This document shows, piece by piece, positions 48,415 to 57,885 of a stretch of 64,000 bases of DNA. The translations under genes and the position numbers were made by a program. The notes below the pieces were generated by a model. It was given only the letters and a program-made list of their open reading frames with translations, was not told the origin of the DNA and searched no databases. How positions within the stretch are numbered: position 1 is the stretch's first letter; the number at the start of each line of letters is the position of its first letter. The stretch comes from Cytophagales bacterium (GTDB taxonomy: Bacteria; Bacteroidota; Bacteroidia; Cytophagales; Thermoflexibacteraceae), in NCBI GenBank assembly GCA_038209965.1, contig JBBQXF010000003.1, positions 25,420 through 89,419 on the forward strand, written 5' to 3'.

Positions 48415-48689
48415 AGCGGATTAGGTAAAAACTGCTTATTCCGTGGCGGGGCAGCCGCACCCGCCAACGTGTAAGTTGGTCTGCGCGAACCGAAGCTGAA
48501 CGGTCCGCCGTCGCAATGGCATGGCGTGGATTGGCCGATTTAGCAGAAAAGTAGATGCACAAAGGAACGCCTTGTCTAGGTGGCAAGTAAGCGCAAGACG
48601 CGCTCTTACGAAGACCAGGAAGGCAATACGCGCCATGTTACAGAAGTGGTGGCGGATGGTGTAGTGCTATTGGATAAAAAAGAAAATAT

Positions 48690-49176
48690 TTGAAAAAATA
48701 TTCGTTTTTGTTTATTTTTTCAAAATTAACTGTTAAGTTCGCAAAGTCAAAACGAAATAAAATTGGGTATGCAAATTTTTCCGTTATTTTACAAGGAAGA
48801 AGGCAAGAAAATAGGCGTGTAATGCTTTCACAAGTGCTTTTAGACACATTGAGAGATTATTACAGGGCCTATAAACCCAAAGATTGGCTGTTTGAAGGAC
48901 AAAGTTACGATTGTTGTAGCACAAGGAGTGGGCAGAAAATATTTCAGGTTGCCAAAGAAAAAACAGGCATTTTGAAAGAGGTAAGCTTCCATGCACTGCG
49001 ACACAGTTTCGCGACGCACCTGCACGAGGCAGGGACTGACGTCCGGATCATTCAAGAACTTTTTTGGGCATAACAGTTCTAAAACTACCGAACGATACAC
49101 GCACGTGAGCAATAGAACTATCCAAAGGGTGCAAAGCCCCTTGGATAGTCTGCTGAACCCGAAAAATGCGAACTAA
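48690..49176 (+). pseudogene. Tyrosine recombinase/integrase remnant: C-terminal catalytic domain only, with a frameshift near 49060.
   Basis: …FHALRHSFATHLHEAGTDVRIIQELF in frame 0, then HNSSKTTERYTHVSN in another frame (the canonical HxxR…LLGHxxxxTTxxYTHV box). There is no N-terminal domain. Confidence 0.65.
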
Positions 49177-49284
49177 AGTTCGGGTAAGTAATGGTGATGG
49201 GCTATTTTATCAGACCATATAGAACTCAAAAAAGTGAGCTTACAATTAATGTAAATCGACAAAAATATATACCTTCGCTGACAA

Positions 49285-50667
49285 ATGAATTTATCTAAAA
49301 TATCAATACAAAACTTTAAGTGTTTCCAAAACAAAATTGACATTGATTTTGGAAGACTTACACTATTAACAGGTGCTAATAGTAGTGGGAAAAGTTCAAT
49401 TATTTATAGTGTGCTTGGCTCACTGCAATCAGGGGAATTTCCATTTCAATTTTCAACTAATGGCAAATATGTTAATATGGGCGATTTTAAAGAAATTGTT
49501 CACGACCACAATCGAAAAGAAAAAATAAAACTTGGATTTACTTTTAAAAATGGTTCTATACATTCAATTGAAACTGTTTGGGAAGAGGATTTAACCAATA
49601 ATTTACCCCAATTATTAGAGTTAAAAGCACAATCTGATTATTTCTTTGTTTCAGTATTGAAAAAGGAAAAAAAATATTCAGTAGATTATACATATGACGC
49701 AGTTAAGGATCCTCAATTTGAAATGATGTCCAATGAAATATTTAAAAAGCTTTTCGCAAACATCAGTGAAGTAATGGAAACGGTTAAAGAGCAAAAAAAC
49801 ACAAAGGGTATTAAGGGAGCCGAACCTAAAAATAATCTTTCCAAATATTTAGAGGACATAAATACATCTCAAGATATTAAAGGTCTACTTCTAGATGAAG
49901 TCCCATTATTTAGAAAGAAAATAGATGAAAAAGGCACTTTTAAATTGAAGCAGATTTTTGATGTTATTACTAAAGTGTTCAGCGAATATGATGAGAAAAT
50001 AAACTTTATTAGTTCGTTCCGTTTGCGTCCAGAAAGAACATATCTTGAACAAACCAAATCTAAAATAAAAGTTAATAATTTCGGGGACGGTTATTTAGAC
50101 CAAATAATTATTTGGGAAACAAAGAATAAACCCAAATTTAATCAGCTAATTAAAATTCTTAAAGAATTAAAACTGTTAGAAACGATAAAATCAAAAAGAC
50201 TTGAAGGAGGACGTTATGAAATTTCTGTTCAAATTAAAAAGGGCGGAATTGACACCTCGCTTAATGATGTTGGTTTTGGTATTTCTCAGTTTTTACCAAT
50301 TATTGTTGCAGACCTTCAACTTCCGAAAAATTCTACGCTATATATAGCTCAACCTGAAATTCACCTTCATCCAAGTGTTCAATCTCTGTTTGGAGGTTAC
50401 TTAACTAATCAAATTAAAATAAGCTCTAAAAATTATGTAATTGAAACTCACAGCGAGTATTTACTTAATAGAATTAGACTTGCAATTGTTAAAGGAGAAA
50501 TAAACTCTGAAGATGTAAATATTATTTTTGTTGATAATCAATCCAAAGACAATATAATACATAAAATTTCTTTCAGTAAAAAAGGGCAAATTCTAAACGC
50601 ACCAGACAATTTCTTTAAGACATATATGATGGATGTAATGGACATTGCAATTAATGCAGCAGAATAA
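49285..50667 (+). CDS. AAA_21/AAA_15-type ABC-like ATPase (OLD/PARIS/Septu-class defence ATPase family), low-GC island.
   Basis: SIQNFKCFQNKIDIDFGRLTLLTGANSSGKSSII (Walker A) … LYIAQPEIHLHPSVQ (D-loop/Walker B type), 460 aa. About 30% GC. Confidence 0.8.
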   Translation: MNLSKISIQNFKCFQNKIDIDFGRLTLLTGANSSGKSSIIYSVLGSLQSGEFPFQFSTNGKYVNMGDFKEIVHDHNRKEKIKLGFTFKNGSIHSIETVWEEDLTNNLPQLLELKAQSDYFFVSVLKKEKKYSVDYTYDAVKDPQFEMMSNEIFKKLFANISEVMETVKEQKNTKGIKGAEPKNNLSKYLEDINTSQDIKGLLLDEVPLFRKKIDEKGTFKLKQIFDVITKVFSEYDEKINFISSFRLRPERTYLEQTKSKIKVNNFGDGYLDQIIIWETKNKPKFNQLIKILKELKLLETIKSKRLEGGRYEISVQIKKGGIDTSLNDVGFGISQFLPIIVADLQLPKNSTLYIAQPEIHLHPSVQSLFGGYLTNQIKISSKNYVIETHSEYLLNRIRLAIVKGEINSEDVNIIFVDNQSKDNIIHKISFSKKGQILNAPDNFFKTYMMDVMDIAINAAE

Positions 50668-50669
50668 GT

Positions 50670-51002
50670 ATGAGAAAGGACATATTTATTGATAATAATA
50701 TAGCGAGTAAATTCTCCAATCCACAAGACAAGGAATATATTAAACTAACAGAATGGTTAATGTTTTATGACCAAAACGATTCTCTAAATAAAGATAATTA
50801 TGCACATTTAGTTGTTTCAAAAAAGCTATTGGTTGAATATTCTCGTTCTTCACTAAATGCTATAAGTGACACATCAATCCCATCAATAGTTGATAAATTA
50901 TTAAGAGAAGACCGTTTAATAATTGTTAGTAATCAGCAAATAAAAGACTTTCAGCCTATCAGACGGCTTCCTATTTTACCAACCTTTTCAGCAAGGCAGT
51001 AA
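50670..51002 (+). CDS. Small protein translationally coupled to the ATPase. It is possibly longer (to ~51139) through a frameshift near 50935-50990.
   Basis: Starts 3 nt after the ATPase stop. A second frame continues a protein-like read …KAVKEAKEINRQNGLPNDFVINGKRFYELPNGETVTENPLANDSTKG*. Confidence 0.4.
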   Translation: MRKDIFIDNNIASKFSNPQDKEYIKLTEWLMFYDQNDSLNKDNYAHLVVSKKLLVEYSRSSLNAISDTSIPSIVDKLLREDRLIIVSNQQIKDFQPIRRLPILPTFSARQ

Positions 51003-51346
51003 AAGAGGCAAAAGAAATTAACCGACAAAACGGTTTACCTAACGACTTTGTAATCAATGGTAAGCGATTTTATGAATTGCCAAACGGTGAAACCGTAACA
51101 GAAAACCCGTTGGCAAACGACAGTACGAAAGGATAATACCGCCCACAATATTATATTTGCGAAAAGTCGGGCTAATGTGCATAATTTAGGCTTTGTGTTT
51201 TTTATAAACATTGTGCACAGGGGCAAGGAAAGTGCTATTAAACCCGCCCTTCGCAAATATTTTTCCGTTACCGGTCAGGCTAAAAGACGATACCGAACAA
51301 ATGACAAGTATAAAAATGGACACTGAAAAAATATTAAATACCTTTA

Positions 51347-51862
51347 ATGGACTTAAAAATGGAAATAAAAGTTAGAGTTTCAACGACCTATGACTCCTCA
51401 TTGGAACGAGCATTTAAAACGCCACTACTTTGTGACGTTTCAAAAGTTCATACAGGTTACGGACTAATGCCCAAAGTGACACGTTGCACAGATGACGAAA
51501 ATTGGGGACAAGTTGGTTCAAGCAAAAAGGTCTATGCTGCAAAATCATTGACACAAAAAGGCGGTTTTGCTTCGGTTGACAAAATTCTTGAGCGGACAGA
51601 AAATAGGTATTGGAAATTTCAGGTTGACAACTTTCAATCTTGGATGTTAGGTTTTCACAAATTTGTTGGTGAATGGCAGACGACAGAAATTAAACCGAAC
51701 AAAATATTAGTTGAATATACTTACACTTTACATTCTGATACTGCATTACTTTACCCATTAAATTGGCTATTCGCAAAAACATTTTGGACAACCTATATGA
51801 AACGAGTGCTAGAAAACGTTAGAAAGTTGGCCTATAATAATGAACCCTACAAGTATGAATAA
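51347..51862 (+). CDS. SRPBCC/Bet v1-like (polyketide-cyclase fold) hypothetical protein.
   Basis: 171 aa with a pattern of alternating beta strands and a long C-terminal helix (…NWLFAKTFWTTYMKRVLENVRKLA…). Confidence 0.4.
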   Translation: MDLKMEIKVRVSTTYDSSLERAFKTPLLCDVSKVHTGYGLMPKVTRCTDDENWGQVGSSKKVYAAKSLTQKGGFASVDKILERTENRYWKFQVDNFQSWMLGFHKFVGEWQTTEIKPNKILVEYTYTLHSDTALLYPLNWLFAKTFWTTYMKRVLENVRKLAYNNEPYKYE

Positions 51863-52078
51863 AGAAGCCCGAATCGTTAACACTAGTTTGGTAAAAGTGG
51901 CGGTTCACTGCTCCGCATCAATATTTGTGGTGAAAATCGCTATCTTCGCCAAGCCGATAACCGTTGCCAGCATTTATTTGGCGGCACAACGACTTCCAAT
52001 GAACTGCAAGAAATTGACAGGATAATGGTGCAAAATTTGACACATAAACATTAACACTTAAACAAGCGACACTTTTAA

Positions 52079-52543
52079 ATGGACGAAATTCTTAAAACGA
52101 CTTTACTTGAATATGAGAGGAGTGCTTTTGTTATTGACTTGGTTAAGCACGGTAGCGGAAAACAATACATCCAAATTTTGCAGACAATCCGAGAAGAAGA
52201 ATCTGACCACAAGCGAGCGATTAAAATTAATCCATCACTCTTGAGTGACATTATTAATGTTCTGAACTCTTATCTCGAAATGTTTCCTGATAGCAAGGAC
52301 AAACCTAAATTTATAGAAAACGAGACGACAGCAAAGTTGCGACCAAGGGGTTTAACAGAATCACAAAAGACCGCAATGCAAAATCGGTACTTAAAAGGTG
52401 TTTCAATTTCTGACTTGACAATTCAATTTGACTGCAAAGCAGAATTAATAGAGCAAATCCTAAACAATAATGGAATTGCAATCGTGAACAACAAACTTCC
52501 AGTGACAAGCAATTACAAGCGGTTCAGAAGGCGAAAGCATTGA
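52079..52543 (+). CDS. Hypothetical 154-aa protein, possible PUR-alpha-like/HTH nucleic-acid-binding protein.
   Basis: …RSAFVIDLVKHGSGKQYIQILQ… resembles Bacteroidota DUF3276/PUR-like repeats. Basic C-terminus. Confidence 0.35.
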   Translation: MDEILKTTLLEYERSAFVIDLVKHGSGKQYIQILQTIREEESDHKRAIKINPSLLSDIINVLNSYLEMFPDSKDKPKFIENETTAKLRPRGLTESQKTAMQNRYLKGVSISDLTIQFDCKAELIEQILNNNGIAIVNNKLPVTSNYKRFRRRKH

Positions 52544-52559
52544 ACAAACTTTTATGCTA

Positions 52560-53290
52560 ACTTTGTGTTAGGTGCGAAATAACAATCAAAGTGGGCCGTC
52601 CCCATTGTCACAGCCCAAAAGTTATCAAAAATGGTGGTAAGGTGGGTAGGCCCCAGAACTTTTTGTGCAAATCCTGCGATAAGCAGTTCATCAGCACCTA
52701 CCGCAACAAGGGGGCAGATCTCCGTGTTAAACACTTGATAACAAGTATGTTGCCAAGGAACTGTGGCATACGGGACATAGCGAGAATCTTGCGGGCCGGC
52801 TGTAAAACGGTCCTATGCGTACTGCCCCGCCAGGGAAGTTTGTGCCAGATCACCCCAAAAAAGGCCATTACCAATCAGTCCGAGTGGATGGGTGGGTCTG
52901 TATGGGGCACAAGAAAAAGGGGAAACGCTGGTTGATCCACGCTTATGCCCCCGAAACGGGCGGGGTGCTGGCCTATGTGATTGGCAAAAGGGACACCGCA
53001 ACGGTCAATAAACTGTATCAACTGCTCAAAAACATCAAGATTGATGAGTTTTGCACGGATCAATGGAAAGCATTTGCCCATGTTTTCAAGAAAGAAAACC
53101 ACCGGGTGGGAAAAGATCTGACAAGGCACATTGAAGGGGGTGAACAACGGTTTGAGGACCGGGAACAGGCGTTTTGTGAGGAAGACCACCTATTTTTCCA
53201 AGAAGGATGAAAACCACGAAGCTGCCATCAAAATCATGTTTCAGCAACGAAATTATGCGTACCATACTTTTTAAAACACAACTAGGTTTT
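52560..53290 (+). mobile_element. IS1-family insertion sequence (InsA/InsB with a -1 frameshift window) carrying an additional disabling frameshift near 53165.
   Basis: InsA-like Zn-finger ORF (CHSPKVIKNGG…CKSCDKQF). InsB-like …WLIHAYAPETGGVLAYVIGKRDTATVNKLYQLLK…TDQWKAF…. The C-terminal LVRKTTYFSKKDENH… is found in a third frame. Confidence 0.65.
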
Positions 53291-53464
53291 CAAATCCAAA
53301 CTGACTTTTTATGTGATGATCTTGAGGAAGCATCGGAAGATGCTGAAAGACTTTACCAGATTAACACCATTAAATGGATACTAATAAATTAATTGCAACA
53401 GGTCTCTTGCAACATTACAAAGAACCTTAAATGCCACTTTCTCTGAAACTAGGGCAGCAGTGCA

Positions 53465-54124
53465 TTAATATTGGTCTAGCATTATATCTTTAAATGAAAT
53501 CTTCATTTTCGTACCACCATGTATCTGTAATCCTATTTTGCCAAAATCGGGATAACTGTTTTCTGGTTCGGTATAATCAACAGTTTGGAATCCGTTCAAT
53601 ATAATAACAATTCGTCGGCCAATGCATCGTATTTCATAGTCGTTCCAATCGTTTTTGCGCAACGATTTTTCCACAATACTGGAATCTGCTTTTGCCAAAA
53701 TGACATCACGCCTTGTTTCATCATACAAGCTGCCGGTATAGCCTGGCCCTATATCAGCCTGAAACCCTACCATCTCGTTCAAGGGGGCCGTCCTATTTCG
53801 TTGTGAATTTACCTGAACACCTGCGTTGACAAAACCGGGCCCTCCTTCCAATTTAAATTTCAGTTTAAGTGTGAAATTCTTGTAATCTTTTTTTGTAGCC
53901 AGAAAATCGTTTTGCAAATGCGTAATACTGGTATCGCCGGCAGTAATAGCCCCATTTTCTATATACCAGACGTTCATATCCCCTTGCCAGCACTTCAGAT
54001 TTTTACCATTAAACAAGATGATTTGTTTTGGTTGCTTTCCTTGCCCAAAAGCCTCAGTTTGCTGCGCAAACACCGGAGATAGACAGCAATAATAAATACA
54101 ACAGGCAACGATTTTTCCTTTCAT
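53465..54124 (-). CDS. DUF1080 (3-keto-disaccharide hydrolase / LamG-like) secreted protein.
   Basis: Signal peptide. …WYIENGAITAG… …GFQADIG… …GLQIHGG…, typical DUF1080/PF06439. Confidence 0.75.
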   Translation of the reverse strand: MKGKIVACCIYYCCLSPVFAQQTEAFGQGKQPKQIILFNGKNLKCWQGDMNVWYIENGAITAGDTSITHLQNDFLATKKDYKNFTLKLKFKLEGGPGFVNAGVQVNSQRNRTAPLNEMVGFQADIGPGYTGSLYDETRRDVILAKADSSIVEKSLRKNDWNDYEIRCIGRRIVIILNGFQTVDYTEPENSYPDFGKIGLQIHGGTKMKISFKDIMLDQY

Positions 54125-54606
54125 AAAAGTAAATTGAAATTAAGTAAATCTAAGAATATGTTTTGAAATTGGTGGTTAGTGAATCAGCGATTTAATAAAA
54201 TTGAGCCTTTGACATAGTCTGTGGTTTATCACATCATAAATCAAGGTAAACCGCTAAACTCGATTTTAAGGTTCAGCAATTTACCGACCCCACGGTACTC
54301 AATGAGCAATAATACAGAAATATATTGACACCGGTCATAAGATCAAAAAGACTGGCGGATGATTGTATTTGTATTTCAAAAGTTGCCGGCACGGGAAGCC
54401 AGTGACGTATCACTAACGAGAAATAATATGCTTTGCAAAGTATCTATCACCACTTCAGCAAATGGACAAAACCGGTATTTTTGATAGTATTATTGCGTAT
54501 TTATTTGAAAATGAATGGATCTGGCAGGTGGTCTGTCAAGCCAATGTCCACGGTTGTTACGTTGGGTGTAAAACTCGGTGGTTTTGCTACTTTCATGCTT
54601 CAATCC

Positions 54607-57600
54607 CTACCGTTTGGTCACCACTTCGTCCAAGTTGAACAGCGTGCTGATCACCATTGTGAGGGCGGCGTGCTCGGCCGCAGGCAGTTTTGGGTCGCGG
54701 GGGTGATCGCCGGTGGCTAGCAAGAGTGCCGCATCTTTGGGTTTCCGGCGGAAATTGGCCAGTTCCTGCTGATAAAGCTCTAGCAGAACGGTCAGCTCGG
54801 CCGGCTTGATGGATCGGAGCACTACTTGGTTGAACGCTTGGGCAATTTGCTTTTCCACATTCTTGGCCGTCCAAACCACTCCGTTGGTTGGGCTGGTTTT
54901 GGCCATTCGTTCGGCCAAAAACCGCGAGGCTTCGATCAGTTGGGGGTCGTTCATCAGCACCAATGCTTGTAACGGGGTGCTGGTATTTTGGCGTTTCACC
55001 ACGCACTGGCTGCGGGTGGCGGCATCGAAAGTGATCATGGCTGGGGGGGGCACGGTGCGCTTCCAGTAGGTGTACAGGCTGCGCCGATACAATCCTTCGC
55101 CTTGGTCGTGCTGGTATTTGACCAGTCCACGCCCCGAAGTGGTGGCTTCCCAGATGCCGTCGGGCTGATAGGGGAACACGCTCGGCCCGCCAATTTTTTC
55201 GGCCAACAAGCCACTCGTTAACAACGCTTGATCGCGGAGCATCTCGGCAGCTAGACGGACTTGGGGACCTCGGGCCAGTAGGCTGTTGTCCGGGTCGCGC
55301 TCCCGCAAGGCGGCGGGTGTGCGCGAAGACTGCCGATAAGTGGCCGACATTACCATCGTTTTGATCATTTGCTTGGTATCCCACTTGTTTTCGCGGTAAG
55401 TGACCGCCAGCCAGTCGAGCAGTTCGGGATGGGTGGGCAGGGTTCCTTGGTTGCCAAAATCCTCGACCGTGCCCACGATCCCCCGGCCAAACAGCATTTG
55501 CCAATAGCGGTTGACCGTGACGCGGGCCACTAAAGGATTGGCCGGGGCAAACAACCATTTGGCCAGCCCAAGGCGGTTGGTGGGCAATTGATCCTCAAAT
55601 TTCAGCACGCTCTCGGGGGTGCCCGGGGTCACGCGCTCGCGATGGGCATCATACGCCCCGCGATCCAAAATGAAACTGGGTCGCACCGAATCGCGCTCGG
55701 CCATCACCAACACTTCAATCAAGGGGTGGCGGAGATCGCACTCTTGCTTGCGAAGGGCAGTCAGTTCGGCCTTCAACTGCTGGTAATCAGGGTTGTTGAG
55801 CAAGGCATGGGCTTCCCGGATCGATGCTGGGGCTGGGCTGGTTTGAGCTGGATTTCCCAGCAAGAACATCTCCCAGCCGGAGAGCTGGCGCGCATACACC
55901 TTGGCGTCATCTATTTGCCCAATCAGGCCCGAATGGAACAGACGTTGGCCCAATTGCAGCTTGTTGTTGTACCCATTCCGGTTGACAGCCCGGATACTGC
56001 GGTACAGTTTGTCAAAAACAGCGGTTTGGGCGGTGGCTTGCCCGTTGACATACAATTGGATGCCGGTGGCCCGGCTCGATCCGTCATAGCTGAACCCGAT
56101 TTGGGTCCATGCCTTGACCGAGATGGGCACTTTGGCCTTCACCATGATCGTATTGTACGGCCACACATTGGTTAGCCGGACATAGACGGTATCGTAGTGG
56201 ATCGAGAGTTCCCAGCCAGCCTTGCCATCATTGTCCTCACAGACCTTGCTGATGATCCCGACTTGGTTTTCCCGTTTTTCCAAATACACCCAAGCACTGG
56301 CTGAAAAGGATTGGTAGCGTTCAAAATTACCAACCGCCGAGTCCTGAACCACCAATTTATTGTCACTTTTGAACCGAAATGCTTTACCCAGCCGGCCGGG
56401 CACAGCTTGGGGAATGGTGTCGCCCTCGGCCGTTACTTCGCGGTTGGCCGTTTTGGTCTTGAAATAATTTTGGTCGTAAGTCTTTTTCTTGTCCCAGTTG
56501 GCGGGTACTTTCCGCTTGGCCACCAGTTCCTCCCCCGTGATGTGCAACACTAGATCTTTGGTCAGATCAGGGCTGGTTGGCCCATTTCGTGCTGATTTGA
56601 AGGGCGAAGCGGCGCGGTTGACCAAAGCGGCCAGCGCTTTTTCTTTGTCCCCAATCAATTTTTTGAGTTGGGCCAACTGAGTGCGCTGGGCCTCGGTGGT
56701 CACTTCCAGCGCCGGGCCGGGCGTTTCGCGGTAGGGAATCCAACCATCTTCGGGCACATTGTTGAAAAAAGCATACAGTTTATAATATTCTTTTTGTAAC
56801 AGCGGATCGTATTTATGATCGTGGCACCGCGCACACTCAAAAGTAAGGCCCAAAAAAGTGGCGGAAAATGTATTGGTGCGGTCGGCCACGTATTCTACCC
56901 GGTATTCTTCATCAATGATTCCGCCTTCTTGGCTAATGGCGTGGTTGCGGTTGAAGCCAGTCGCGAGTTTCTGCTCGTAGGTAGCGTTGGGCAACAGATC
57001 GCCGGCCAATTGCCAGGTCACAAACTGGTCAAACGGCAGGTTTTGGTTGTAGGCTTTGATCACCCATTCGCGCCACGGGTACTGGGTGCGGGGCATATCA
57101 TCTTGGTATCCGTGGGTGTCGGCATAGCGGGCCACGTCGAGCCAAACGGTCGCCATCCGCTCACCGAAGCGGGGAGAAGCCAGCAACCGATCCACCACTT
57201 TGGCAAATGCGTTCGTACTTTGGTCACTCACAAAATCAGCCACTTCTTGAGGAGTGGGCGGGAGCCCGGTCAGGTCGAAAGTGACCCGGCGGAGGAGCGT
57301 ATGTTTTTGGGCTTCTGGTTGGGGCGATAAATTTTCGCGCTCCAATCGGGCCAGCACATAATTATCGATGGGGTTTCGGGGCCAATTGGCTGCTTTTACC
57401 GTTGGCACTTGGGCGATTTGGGGTGGGATAAACGACCAGTGCGGCTTCCATTTCGCCCCTTGCTCGATCCATTTGCCAATCACCGCTTTCTCGTATTCGG
57501 ACAGTTTGAGGTTGGATTCGGGCGGGGGCATTACTTCGTCCGGGTCGCTATGGATGATCCGTTTCCAGACTTCGCTCCCGTGCAGATCGCCCGCCAGGAT

Positions 57601-57885
57601 GGCCACTTGACCGCTTTCGGCCAAGGCTTTCATGGCGCCGGCTTCGTTGTCCAGCCGGAGGTTCGCTTTGCGGCCCGTGCTGGAGGGCCCGTGGCAGGCA
57701 TAGCACCGATCCGACATTATGGGCCGGACGTGGAAGTTGAAATCCACTACTTCGGGCAAGCCCGCCACTTGATCAAATTCGGAGGTAGTAGTGCAGCTTT
57801 TCAAGGTGAGCGAAGCCGCCACTGCACCCGCAAAGACCAGCAAAGAGGAAGGAAATAACCAACGGGAAATGTTGTGTGTTTTCAT
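54607..57885 (-). CDS. PSD1/DUF1549/DUF1553 protein with an N-terminal planctomycete-type cytochrome c (PSCyt) domain.
   Basis: CYACHGPSSTGRKANLRLD heme-binding motif. 1092 aa with the characteristic DUF1549 / DUF1553 architecture. Confidence 0.85.
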   Translation of the reverse strand: MKTHNISRWLFPSSLLVFAGAVAASLTLKSCTTTSEFDQVAGLPEVVDFNFHVRPIMSDRCYACHGPSSTGRKANLRLDNEAGAMKALAESGQVAILAGDLHGSEVWKRIIHSDPDEVMPPPESNLKLSEYEKAVIGKWIEQGAKWKPHWSFIPPQIAQVPTVKAANWPRNPIDNYVLARLERENLSPQPEAQKHTLLRRVTFDLTGLPPTPQEVADFVSDQSTNAFAKVVDRLLASPRFGERMATVWLDVARYADTHGYQDDMPRTQYPWREWVIKAYNQNLPFDQFVTWQLAGDLLPNATYEQKLATGFNRNHAISQEGGIIDEEYRVEYVADRTNTFSATFLGLTFECARCHDHKYDPLLQKEYYKLYAFFNNVPEDGWIPYRETPGPALEVTTEAQRTQLAQLKKLIGDKEKALAALVNRAASPFKSARNGPTSPDLTKDLVLHITGEELVAKRKVPANWDKKKTYDQNYFKTKTANREVTAEGDTIPQAVPGRLGKAFRFKSDNKLVVQDSAVGNFERYQSFSASAWVYLEKRENQVGIISKVCEDNDGKAGWELSIHYDTVYVRLTNVWPYNTIMVKAKVPISVKAWTQIGFSYDGSSRATGIQLYVNGQATAQTAVFDKLYRSIRAVNRNGYNNKLQLGQRLFHSGLIGQIDDAKVYARQLSGWEMFLLGNPAQTSPAPASIREAHALLNNPDYQQLKAELTALRKQECDLRHPLIEVLVMAERDSVRPSFILDRGAYDAHRERVTPGTPESVLKFEDQLPTNRLGLAKWLFAPANPLVARVTVNRYWQMLFGRGIVGTVEDFGNQGTLPTHPELLDWLAVTYRENKWDTKQMIKTMVMSATYRQSSRTPAALRERDPDNSLLARGPQVRLAAEMLRDQALLTSGLLAEKIGGPSVFPYQPDGIWEATTSGRGLVKYQHDQGEGLYRRSLYTYWKRTVPPPAMITFDAATRSQCVVKRQNTSTPLQALVLMNDPQLIEASRFLAERMAKTSPTNGVVWTAKNVEKQIAQAFNQVVLRSIKPAELTVLLELYQQELANFRRKPKDAALLLATGDHPRDPKLPAAEHAALTMVISTLFNLDEVVTKR

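Follow-up and report, generated by a model that had tools for sequence, protein, structure and literature searches.

A truncated cassette of an ABC ATPase and a predicted PIN nuclease, probably of defence type when intact, in a low-GC island of a Cytophagales bacterium

Introduction

The three-gene system Menshen (NsnA-NsnB-NsnC) was reportedly described by Millman et al. in 2022. Its NsnB is composed of an AAA_15 and a DUF3696 domain, and at the N-terminus of its NsnC stands a PIN-like domain that is inactive (Li et al., NAR 2025, PMC12065111) and that in an AlphaFold 3 (AF3) model sits between two DUF3696 tails of the NsnB tetramer (PMC12065111). The survey of Menshen by Li et al. began from the ParB-DUF262 domain of NsnA (PMC12065111), so that cassettes without NsnA would not have been collected. 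HEC-03 (Hma-embedded candidate 3) combines an ATP-binding cassette (ABC) ATPase with a VapC-like PIN protein and comes from Pseudomonas cichorii (Payne et al., bioRxiv 10.1101/2024.01.29.577857); its defence in Escherichia coli needed both genes, and its induction was toxic (bioRxiv 10.1101/2024.01.29.577857). Table S2 of that study gives the ATPase as WP_025259138.1, a 'DUF3696 domain-containing protein' encoded by a gene of 1,386 nt (461 codons), and the PIN protein, WP_025259137.1, has 157 aa and is encoded by a gene that overlaps the ATPase gene (bioRxiv 10.1101/2024.01.29.577857). The window analyzed here is a 64,000-nt stretch of DNA from a Cytophagales bacterium, and all coordinates refer to it. 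It carries, in an island of low guanine-plus-cytosine (GC) content, an ABC ATPase gene and directly behind it a small gene, which a sequence-only reading had taken together for a possibly novel two-gene defence module. We consider it likely that the two genes are a decayed copy of a self-contained cassette of an ABC ATPase (AAA_15 plus DUF3696) and a PIN protein, which resembles HEC-03 and Menshen and is of defence type when intact.

Results

Truncation of the small gene in the window

The small open reading frame (ORF) begins at 50670, two bases past the TAA stop codon of the ATPase gene, and the tight coupling of the two genes that had been read from the sequence is therefore real. The features of the cassette are listed below; the junction was defined with the help of L022, the contig with the nearest intact copy, and L029, a contig in which the 70-aa gene is whole.

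49285..50667, + strand: ABC-type ATPase, 460 aa, full length, with an AAA_15/AAA_21 head and a C-terminal DUF3696 tail (residues 406-453)
49201..50953, + strand: block of homology to intact ATPase-PIN cassettes, GC about 0.29; the surviving part of the cassette
50670..50953, + strand: stump of the gene for the partner with the predicted PIN fold; first 94 codons and two bases of codon 95
50670..51002, + strand: chimeric 110-aa ORF; PIN residues 1-95, then 15 out-of-frame codons of the 70-aa gene and a stop
50948..50953, no strand: recombination junction; the 6-bp microhomology CTTTCA occurs in both the PIN gene and the 70-aa gene, as found by comparing the window with L022 and L029

Window positions 49201-50953 are 98.5-99.0% identical in nucleotide sequence to the metagenome contigs L022-L026, which hold the intact pair, and the alignment to every close relative (L009, L019-L027) stops exactly at 50953. 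The 110-aa product is 98% identical to a 159-aa homologue (P0002) through residue 95 (...IKDFQ) and unrelated to it beyond, and its alignments to homologues cover 86-89% of its length. Against an intact relative, the first 94 PIN codons differ by two synonymous and no non-synonymous changes. The hidden Markov model (HMM) of the family gives the stump 102 bits and intact copies 170-211 bits. D8 and E56 are retained in the stump; D113, R125, and D132 are missing, as are strands beta4 and beta5 of the five-stranded core.

The small ORF had also been suspected to be frameshifted and to continue to about 51139. This was not borne out, since homology to the 159-aa orthologues stops at 50953 and the rest belongs to the 70-aa gene. 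Intact partners end in 64 residues that the +2-frame continuation to 51136 does not resemble; what it contains are the final 62 codons of the unrelated 70-aa gene, to which it is 96% identical in DNA. Illegitimate recombination at CTTTCA removed the last 65 PIN codons and fused the stump to an unrelated gene. The identical 110-aa chimera is present on nine contigs from several sequencing runs, SRR26988067 among them, and is the sole allele seen at this locus, which makes it a real allele and not an assembly error. Because the effector has lost two of its four predicted catalytic acids and two core strands, the module in the window is most likely non-functional.

Predicted PIN fold of the partner family

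The 110-aa product has 171 homologues at E values up to 0.01, nearly all of 159-160 aa, and a profile search of 1.84 billion representatives yielded 202 clusters of the partner at 50% identity. Among the members listed, the lengths range from 54 to 211 aa, with full-length proteins of about 140-175 aa; the short entries are contig-end fragments, and none of the members is long enough for an extra effector domain. All of 96 members down to 28% identity share D4, D8, W29, D113, and R125, and at least 90% of them have E56 and D132. In the predicted secondary structure, D8 is at the end of beta1, E56 in the helix that follows beta2, D113 at the start of a helical segment before beta4, and D132 behind beta4. 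The partner is predicted to be a stand-alone nuclease of about 159 aa with a PIN fold, that is, a parallel beta-sheet core with flanking helices, and the structural neighbours of its model are mostly VapC toxins. The single-domain PIN of the intact family appears to be catalytically competent.

Searches of Pfam, PADLOC, NCBIfam, and PHROGs gave no match for the 110-aa ORF or the full-length orthologues, and none of the four placed a Toprim (DUF4435), HNH, or fused Toprim domain in the partner. Against PDB sequences, the partner profiles gave nothing beyond chance-level matches, and tblastn of the partner against plasmid and phage collections gave no match. The small gene had been described as unlike the known partners of such ATPases, which holds as far as HNH, Toprim, and DUF4435 are concerned; its fold, however, is not an unknown one but is predicted to be PIN. 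As the PIN protein has no match in these four collections, current defence-finder models miss the ATPase-PIN cassette.

The ATPase and its relatives

The 460-aa ATPase had been assigned to AAA_21/AAA_15 with the motifs GANSSGKSS and QPEIHLHP, and both the domains and the motifs were found. Pfam gave AAA_15 at 1e-23, AAA_21 at 1e-10, and DUF3696 at 3e-6; Walker A reads GANSSGKS, with the quoted GANSSGKSS present, and the Walker-B region reads AQPEIHLHP. The best match in the PADLOC library is NsnB of Menshen (9e-56, 188 bits) and the second is the HEC-03 ATPase model PDLC04148 (8e-48, 162 bits, profile positions 2-443 of 458); PDC-M55A (3.5e-45), AriA (6e-28), and, more weakly, GajA, PtuA, and Old also match. 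In direct comparison the ATPase is 24% identical to that of P. cichorii HEC-03, WP_025259138.1 (E 1e-26), and 26% identical to a bona fide NsnB (E 8e-24). The NCBIfam models of RecF, Rad50, and SbcC cover residues 1-46 only, around Walker A, far under the cut-offs, with E values of 1e-3 to 1e-4 for RecF and Rad50. This agrees with the earlier placement of the protein among defence and not housekeeping ATPases. A fold search does not discriminate defence ATPases from SMC and Rad50, and the close homologues carry the public annotation 'DUF3696 domain-containing protein'.

All 65 ATPase homologues compared share the Walker A lysine, a D-V-G-F-G signature region, PEIHLHP, and the ETHSEY H-loop; at the classical Walker-B Asp-Glu positions, at least 90% of them have Ala-Gln. 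The window ATPase retains every invariant family motif. The most variable part in the alignment is an insert at residues ~90-240, which is largely deleted in some orthologues. L007 (4295-5476, 393 aa) and L008 (2880-4001, 373 aa) encode orthologous ATPases in which most of the insert (~120-230 in the window protein) is missing although the PIN partner is present; pairing therefore does not need the insert, which may be a variable sensing part.

Compared with L022, the window ATPase shows 16 non-synonymous and 5 synonymous changes, with a ratio of non-synonymous to synonymous rates (dN/dS) of ~0.8; for distant intact ATPase pairs the ratio is 0.04-0.08. Among the changes on the window side are H248R and D371G; at these two sites most of the aligned orthologues carry H and D, respectively. 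We considered relaxed selection on the window ATPase and rejected it, because an outgroup reading splits the changes about evenly between both lineages, and the dN/dS of 0.8 is thus no evidence for decay in the window lineage.

Linkage of the two genes across loci

With the ATPase as query, 12 loci were obtained from a species-level genome collection. In 10 of them the ATPase is at least 42% identical, and the partner gene follows immediately in each. The remaining two, L011 (Kaistella haifensis) and L012, whose more distant ATPases are 26-34% identical, are without the partner; both are bona fide three-gene Menshen loci (NsnA 1e-112, NsnB 6e-107, NsnC 2e-99) and served as a positive control. 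Further contexts were reached through the partner or the ATPase (L019, L027, L031, L032, L034, L036, and L038), and the pair is present in all of them, surrounded by unrelated genes that are mostly of housekeeping type. The upstream ATPase has 437-466 aa, rarely 373-393 aa, and the two genes are separated by a short overlap or a gap of 0-25 nt. When the family HMMs were applied to all fetched loci, the two genes co-occurred in every one of the 18 non-redundant contexts with this ATPase subfamily (18/18, 100%), so that a conserved association of the small gene, in its full-length form, with the ATPase is confirmed. An all-vs-all ORF comparison over 12 related loci revealed no third conserved neighbour gene.

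Within Bacteroidota the carriers belong to Saprospiraceae, Cytophagales, Chitinophagales, Bacteroidales, Flavobacterium, and Pedobacter, and outside this phylum to Anaerolineales, Sedimentisphaerales, and UASB14; Pedobacter nanyangensis is an isolate that carries the pair (GCA_003313505.1, contig QMHO01000002.1, about 501.4-503.3 kb). To judge from its distribution and gene contexts, the pair behaves like a self-contained cassette of two genes that moves horizontally.

Two of the intact copies stand beside genes of defence or toxin-antitoxin type. In L038 (7125-8859) the cassette lies near a VapC-type PIN gene (PF01850), which has a 90-aa gene upstream of it, and near a DNA methylase gene, and in L031 (9712-10244) it adjoins a ParD/ParE pair. 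In L009 (8569-10846), ORFs of 460 aa and 301 aa stand just downstream of the cassette, and a pair of 418 aa and 301 aa stands upstream; the downstream 460-aa ORF gave no match to the ATPase family HMM.

Comparison with HEC-03, Menshen, and other systems

The family shares with HEC-03 the same two-gene layout, an ABC ATPase of ~460 aa with DUF3696 followed by a PIN protein of ~157 aa, the PIN being a predicted one in the present family. The ATPases align end to end, and the motif ...QPEIHLHPSVQS is found in both. Between the PIN partners, in contrast, no similarity in sequence was detected (hhalign probability 0.4; z 0.5 in a global alignment), and the PADLOC model of the HEC-03 PIN gave no match to the partner at E values up to 10; since the partner is unlike the HEC-03 PIN in sequence, PADLOC would not call the family HEC-03. 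Further differences are that the window ATPase is about equally far from HEC-03 and from NsnB, that the hosts of the present family are mainly Bacteroidota and other non-proteobacterial phyla, and that the window copy is truncated. With its PIN gene downstream of the ATPase gene, the family agrees with HEC-03 in predicted fold and gene order, not in sequence.

With Menshen the family has in common an ATPase of the NsnB type, with an AAA_15 head and a DUF3696 tail, and the C-terminal tails are alike (NAPxxFFKTYMMDVMDIA here, NWPxGFFDQQEIDLANIF in NsnB). On the NsnB model, however, the window ATPase reaches 188 bits, compared with 356 bits for a true NsnB, and its Walker-B region has AQ where NsnB, as represented by L011 and L012, has EN. 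Neither the window nor any of the 18 related loci (12 loci and six further contexts) has an NsnA gene (ParB-DUF262 plus ParBDB), whereas the control loci L011 and L012 do; in its place an integrase stump lies upstream of the window ATPase. The partner is a single-domain PIN, by prediction, that keeps the D-E-D-D pattern, whereas NsnC is an inactive PIN with a C-terminal nuclease or toxin domain; the partner gave no match to NsnC in PADLOC and an hhalign probability of 0.2 against it. Because it has neither NsnA nor a two-domain NsnC, the family is not a member of Menshen.

VapBC modules differ in that no VapB antitoxin gene is found here, the upstream gene in every locus being the ATPase (460 aa in the window), and profile comparisons link the partner neither to Pfam PIN nor to a bona fide VapC family. 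From PARIS (AriA-AriB), Septu (PtuA-PtuB), Gabija (GajA), and OLD the family is set apart by its effector, which is a predicted PIN and not Toprim/DUF4435 or HNH, and by the DUF3696 tail, which those systems do not have; their model scores are far under those of NsnB and HEC-03. Membership in PDC-M55 was rejected, as this is a three-gene candidate whose other components do not match the partner.

We therefore file the family as a divergent member of the DUF3696-ATPase-plus-PIN kind, HEC-03-like and Menshen-related. It is not demonstrably in the HEC-03 sequence family, since the PIN does not match. Of the earlier proposal of a possibly novel two-gene defence module, the defence-type ATPase-nuclease pair and its strict linkage stand, but the layout has a precedent in HEC-03, and the window copy is truncated and very unlikely to work.

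The island, its limits, and the second mosaic block

Apart from the cassette, the island contains the following features.

48690..49176, + strand: tyrosine-recombinase (integrase) remnant; Pfam Phage_integrase 7e-16, profile positions 58-153 of 172
50945..52565, + strand: second mosaic block, unrelated to the cassette; GC about 0.37; 96.3-96.5% identity to L028/L029
50948-51136, + strand: 3' part of the 70-aa gene, which is whole in L028/L029
51347-51862, + strand: SRPBCC gene; Polyketide_cyc2, 4e-8
51840-52025, + strand: disrupted 86-aa ORF, reduced to 61 aa by a 37-bp deletion near 51910
52079-52543, + strand: 154-aa ORF, conserved alongside the SRPBCC gene in L028-L030
52591..53210, + strand: degenerate IS1-like element; InsA-like and partial DDE_Tnp_IS1 ORFs (Pfam)

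The GC content is 0.56-0.62 up to ~48.4 kb, in the host-like flank, 0.26-0.32 across 49.2-51.0 kb (49200-50999), and 0.355-0.39 across 51000-52600; the IS1-like stretch has ~0.50 and is followed by 0.35-0.43 until ~54.4 kb, where host-like GC resumes. The drop to about 30% that had been reported for the whole island is real, but it holds for the ATPase-PIN block only, and low GC runs to ~54.4 kb and not to 53.3 kb. Since low GC persists beyond the IS1 remnant, the foreign zone extends past the right-hand limit given earlier, and it probably ends near ~54.5 kb, just ahead of a convergent 1092-aa gene at 54607-57885. The low-GC zone at 53300-54500 contains an intact 219-aa gene of the 3-keto-disaccharide hydrolase family (53465-54124, - strand; PF06439, 5e-35).

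Both of the mobile-element remnants named in the sequence-only reading were recovered. The integrase remnant at 48690-49176 is split over two frames (ORFs 48690-49073 and 48991-49176); it comprises the C-terminal catalytic part only, and no N-terminal domain lies upstream. On the right flank, the IS1 remnant adjoins the end of the second mosaic block (52565) and consists of weak InsA matches at 52591-52935 and a DDE_Tnp_IS1 match at 52815-53210 (3e-15), which covers positions 10-92 of 131 only. No tRNA gene marking an integration site was found at the island, and no meaningful direct repeats flank it.

The gene that had been recognized as SRPBCC-fold lies in the second mosaic block, which corresponds to a locus of L028/L029 that encodes zeta-toxin-like kinase fragments and 70-aa, SRPBCC, 86-aa, and 154-aa proteins. 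In these two contigs the zeta-toxin/AAA_33-like kinase gene precedes the 70-aa gene and is split into fragments of 96 and 76 aa (L028 762-1524; L029 588-1350); kinase and 70-aa gene may be a decayed toxin-antitoxin pair. Compared with L029, the window has lost 37 bp near 51910, between two copies of CTCCGCATCAA; the island has thus decayed a second time, independently of the truncation of the PIN gene. For the 154-aa ORF, the former label 'PUR-like/HTH' finds no support: Pfam gives no match, and the C-terminal 40 residues have weak matches only, to PADLOC PDC-M24B (E 0.0033) and phrog_5059 (E 0.05). On comparative sequence grounds, the SRPBCC and 154-aa genes are assigned to a separate mosaic block, outside the ATPase-PIN module. 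The island is a patchwork of fragments, with an integrase stump, an IS1 stump, and a second foreign block that has its own deletion.

Discussion

Decay commonly proceeds by loss of a toxic effector while the harmless partner is kept. The cassette in the window, with a full-length ATPase gene and a PIN stump, is most likely inactive. For intact copies, a working model can be drawn by analogy with HEC-03, Menshen, Septu, and PARIS. Oligomers of the ATPase would hold the PIN through their DUF3696 tails and keep it silent. A phage-derived cue, presumably sensed by the variable insert, would act on the ATPase and alter its ATP-bound state, and ATP binding, or slow hydrolysis given the AQ in the Walker-B region, could then release or activate the PIN. 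The released PIN would cut RNA with its D-E-D-D metal site, so that growth would halt and the infection abort.

Several points weigh against the reading as a decayed cassette of defence type. With AQPE in place of DE in the Walker-B region, ATP hydrolysis by the ATPase family may be weak or absent. We infer the clustering of D8, E56, D113, and D132 at one site, the canonical D-E-D-D metal site of VapC-type PINs, from their secondary-structure positions, and neither hhalign nor profile searches link the partner to Pfam PIN, the HEC-03 PIN, NsnC, or bona fide VapC (PF01850). Most intact copies examined are solo cassettes amid housekeeping genes, outside defence islands, a placement that fits a selfish module of toxin-antitoxin type as well as defence. 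In the window itself, the intact ATPase ORF may retain some residual role.

In a rival reading, the intact cassette is mainly an addiction module resembling toxin-antitoxin systems. The PIN would be its VapC-like toxin and the ATPase would sequester this toxin as a protein antitoxin; the window copy would then show toxin loss, the usual end of such modules. The structural neighbours of the partner, mostly VapC toxins, would suit such a module, as would a solo two-gene unit scattered horizontally among housekeeping genes, with one copy beside ParDE and another beside a VapC-type PIN gene and a DNA methylase; moreover, induced HEC-03 is toxic in E. coli. However, the nearest characterized relatives of the ATPase (NsnB, HEC-03, AriA, and PtuA) all belong to anti-phage systems, and a 460-aa ATPase with a variable insert far exceeds what the neutralization of a toxin needs. 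We regard addiction as the main role as rather unlikely, and the two readings are not exclusive, as abortive-infection systems often act like toxin-antitoxin pairs. That the module in the window still works, with the ATPase and the 110-aa chimera as a functional two-gene system, is very improbable. The full-length ATPase ORF with all its invariant motifs, the truncated allele as the only one at this locus on nine contigs from several runs, and the 2 synonymous and 0 non-synonymous differences in the first 94 PIN codons could be taken in its favour. The stump, however, is without the invariant D113 and R125, the near-invariant D132, beta4, and beta5, its new tail is the out-of-frame reading of another gene, none of the 202 clusters points to a naturally short functional form, and the adjacent genes of the island are broken too.

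It is least probable of all, and in our view hardly credible, that the ATPase is a housekeeping protein of DNA repair or chromosome maintenance, similar to SMC, Rad50, or RecF, and that its neighbour is incidental. The matches to RecF and Rad50 are confined to the 46 residues around Walker A and remain far under the family cut-offs, and the ATPase has no coiled-coil insert. The structural similarity to SMC does not discriminate, because the best structural match of NsnB is also SMC. Across phyla the distribution is patchy, the genomic context differs each time, and the linkage to the PIN gene is strict; the gene in the window sits in a low-GC foreign island. A decayed ATPase-PIN cassette of defence type is thus the explanation that we prefer. 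An extension of it, which we put forward tentatively and think unlikely to be correct, is that intact copies form an anti-phage system of their own, a sensor-less 'mini-Menshen' whose DUF3696 ATPase directly controls an active stand-alone PIN. Such a system would be an evolutionary link from the HEC-03 type to the three-gene Menshen, and the inactive PIN adaptor of NsnC would stem from a PIN effector that was once active and already clamped by DUF3696 tails. In the window, the stump (PIN residues 1-95) might even persist as a decoy that binds the ATPase.

For the window, these results turn what appeared to be a working and possibly novel module into a broken copy amid decaying mobile-element debris. 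For the family, the analysis defines a small, tightly linked ATPase-PIN cassette that is tied to HEC-03 and Menshen through the DUF3696 tail, with Pedobacter nanyangensis as a named cultured carrier. Should the family prove to act in defence, the theme of an ABC ATPase plus a nuclease would reach into Bacteroidota, and the origin of the PIN-like adaptor of Menshen would become easier to explain.

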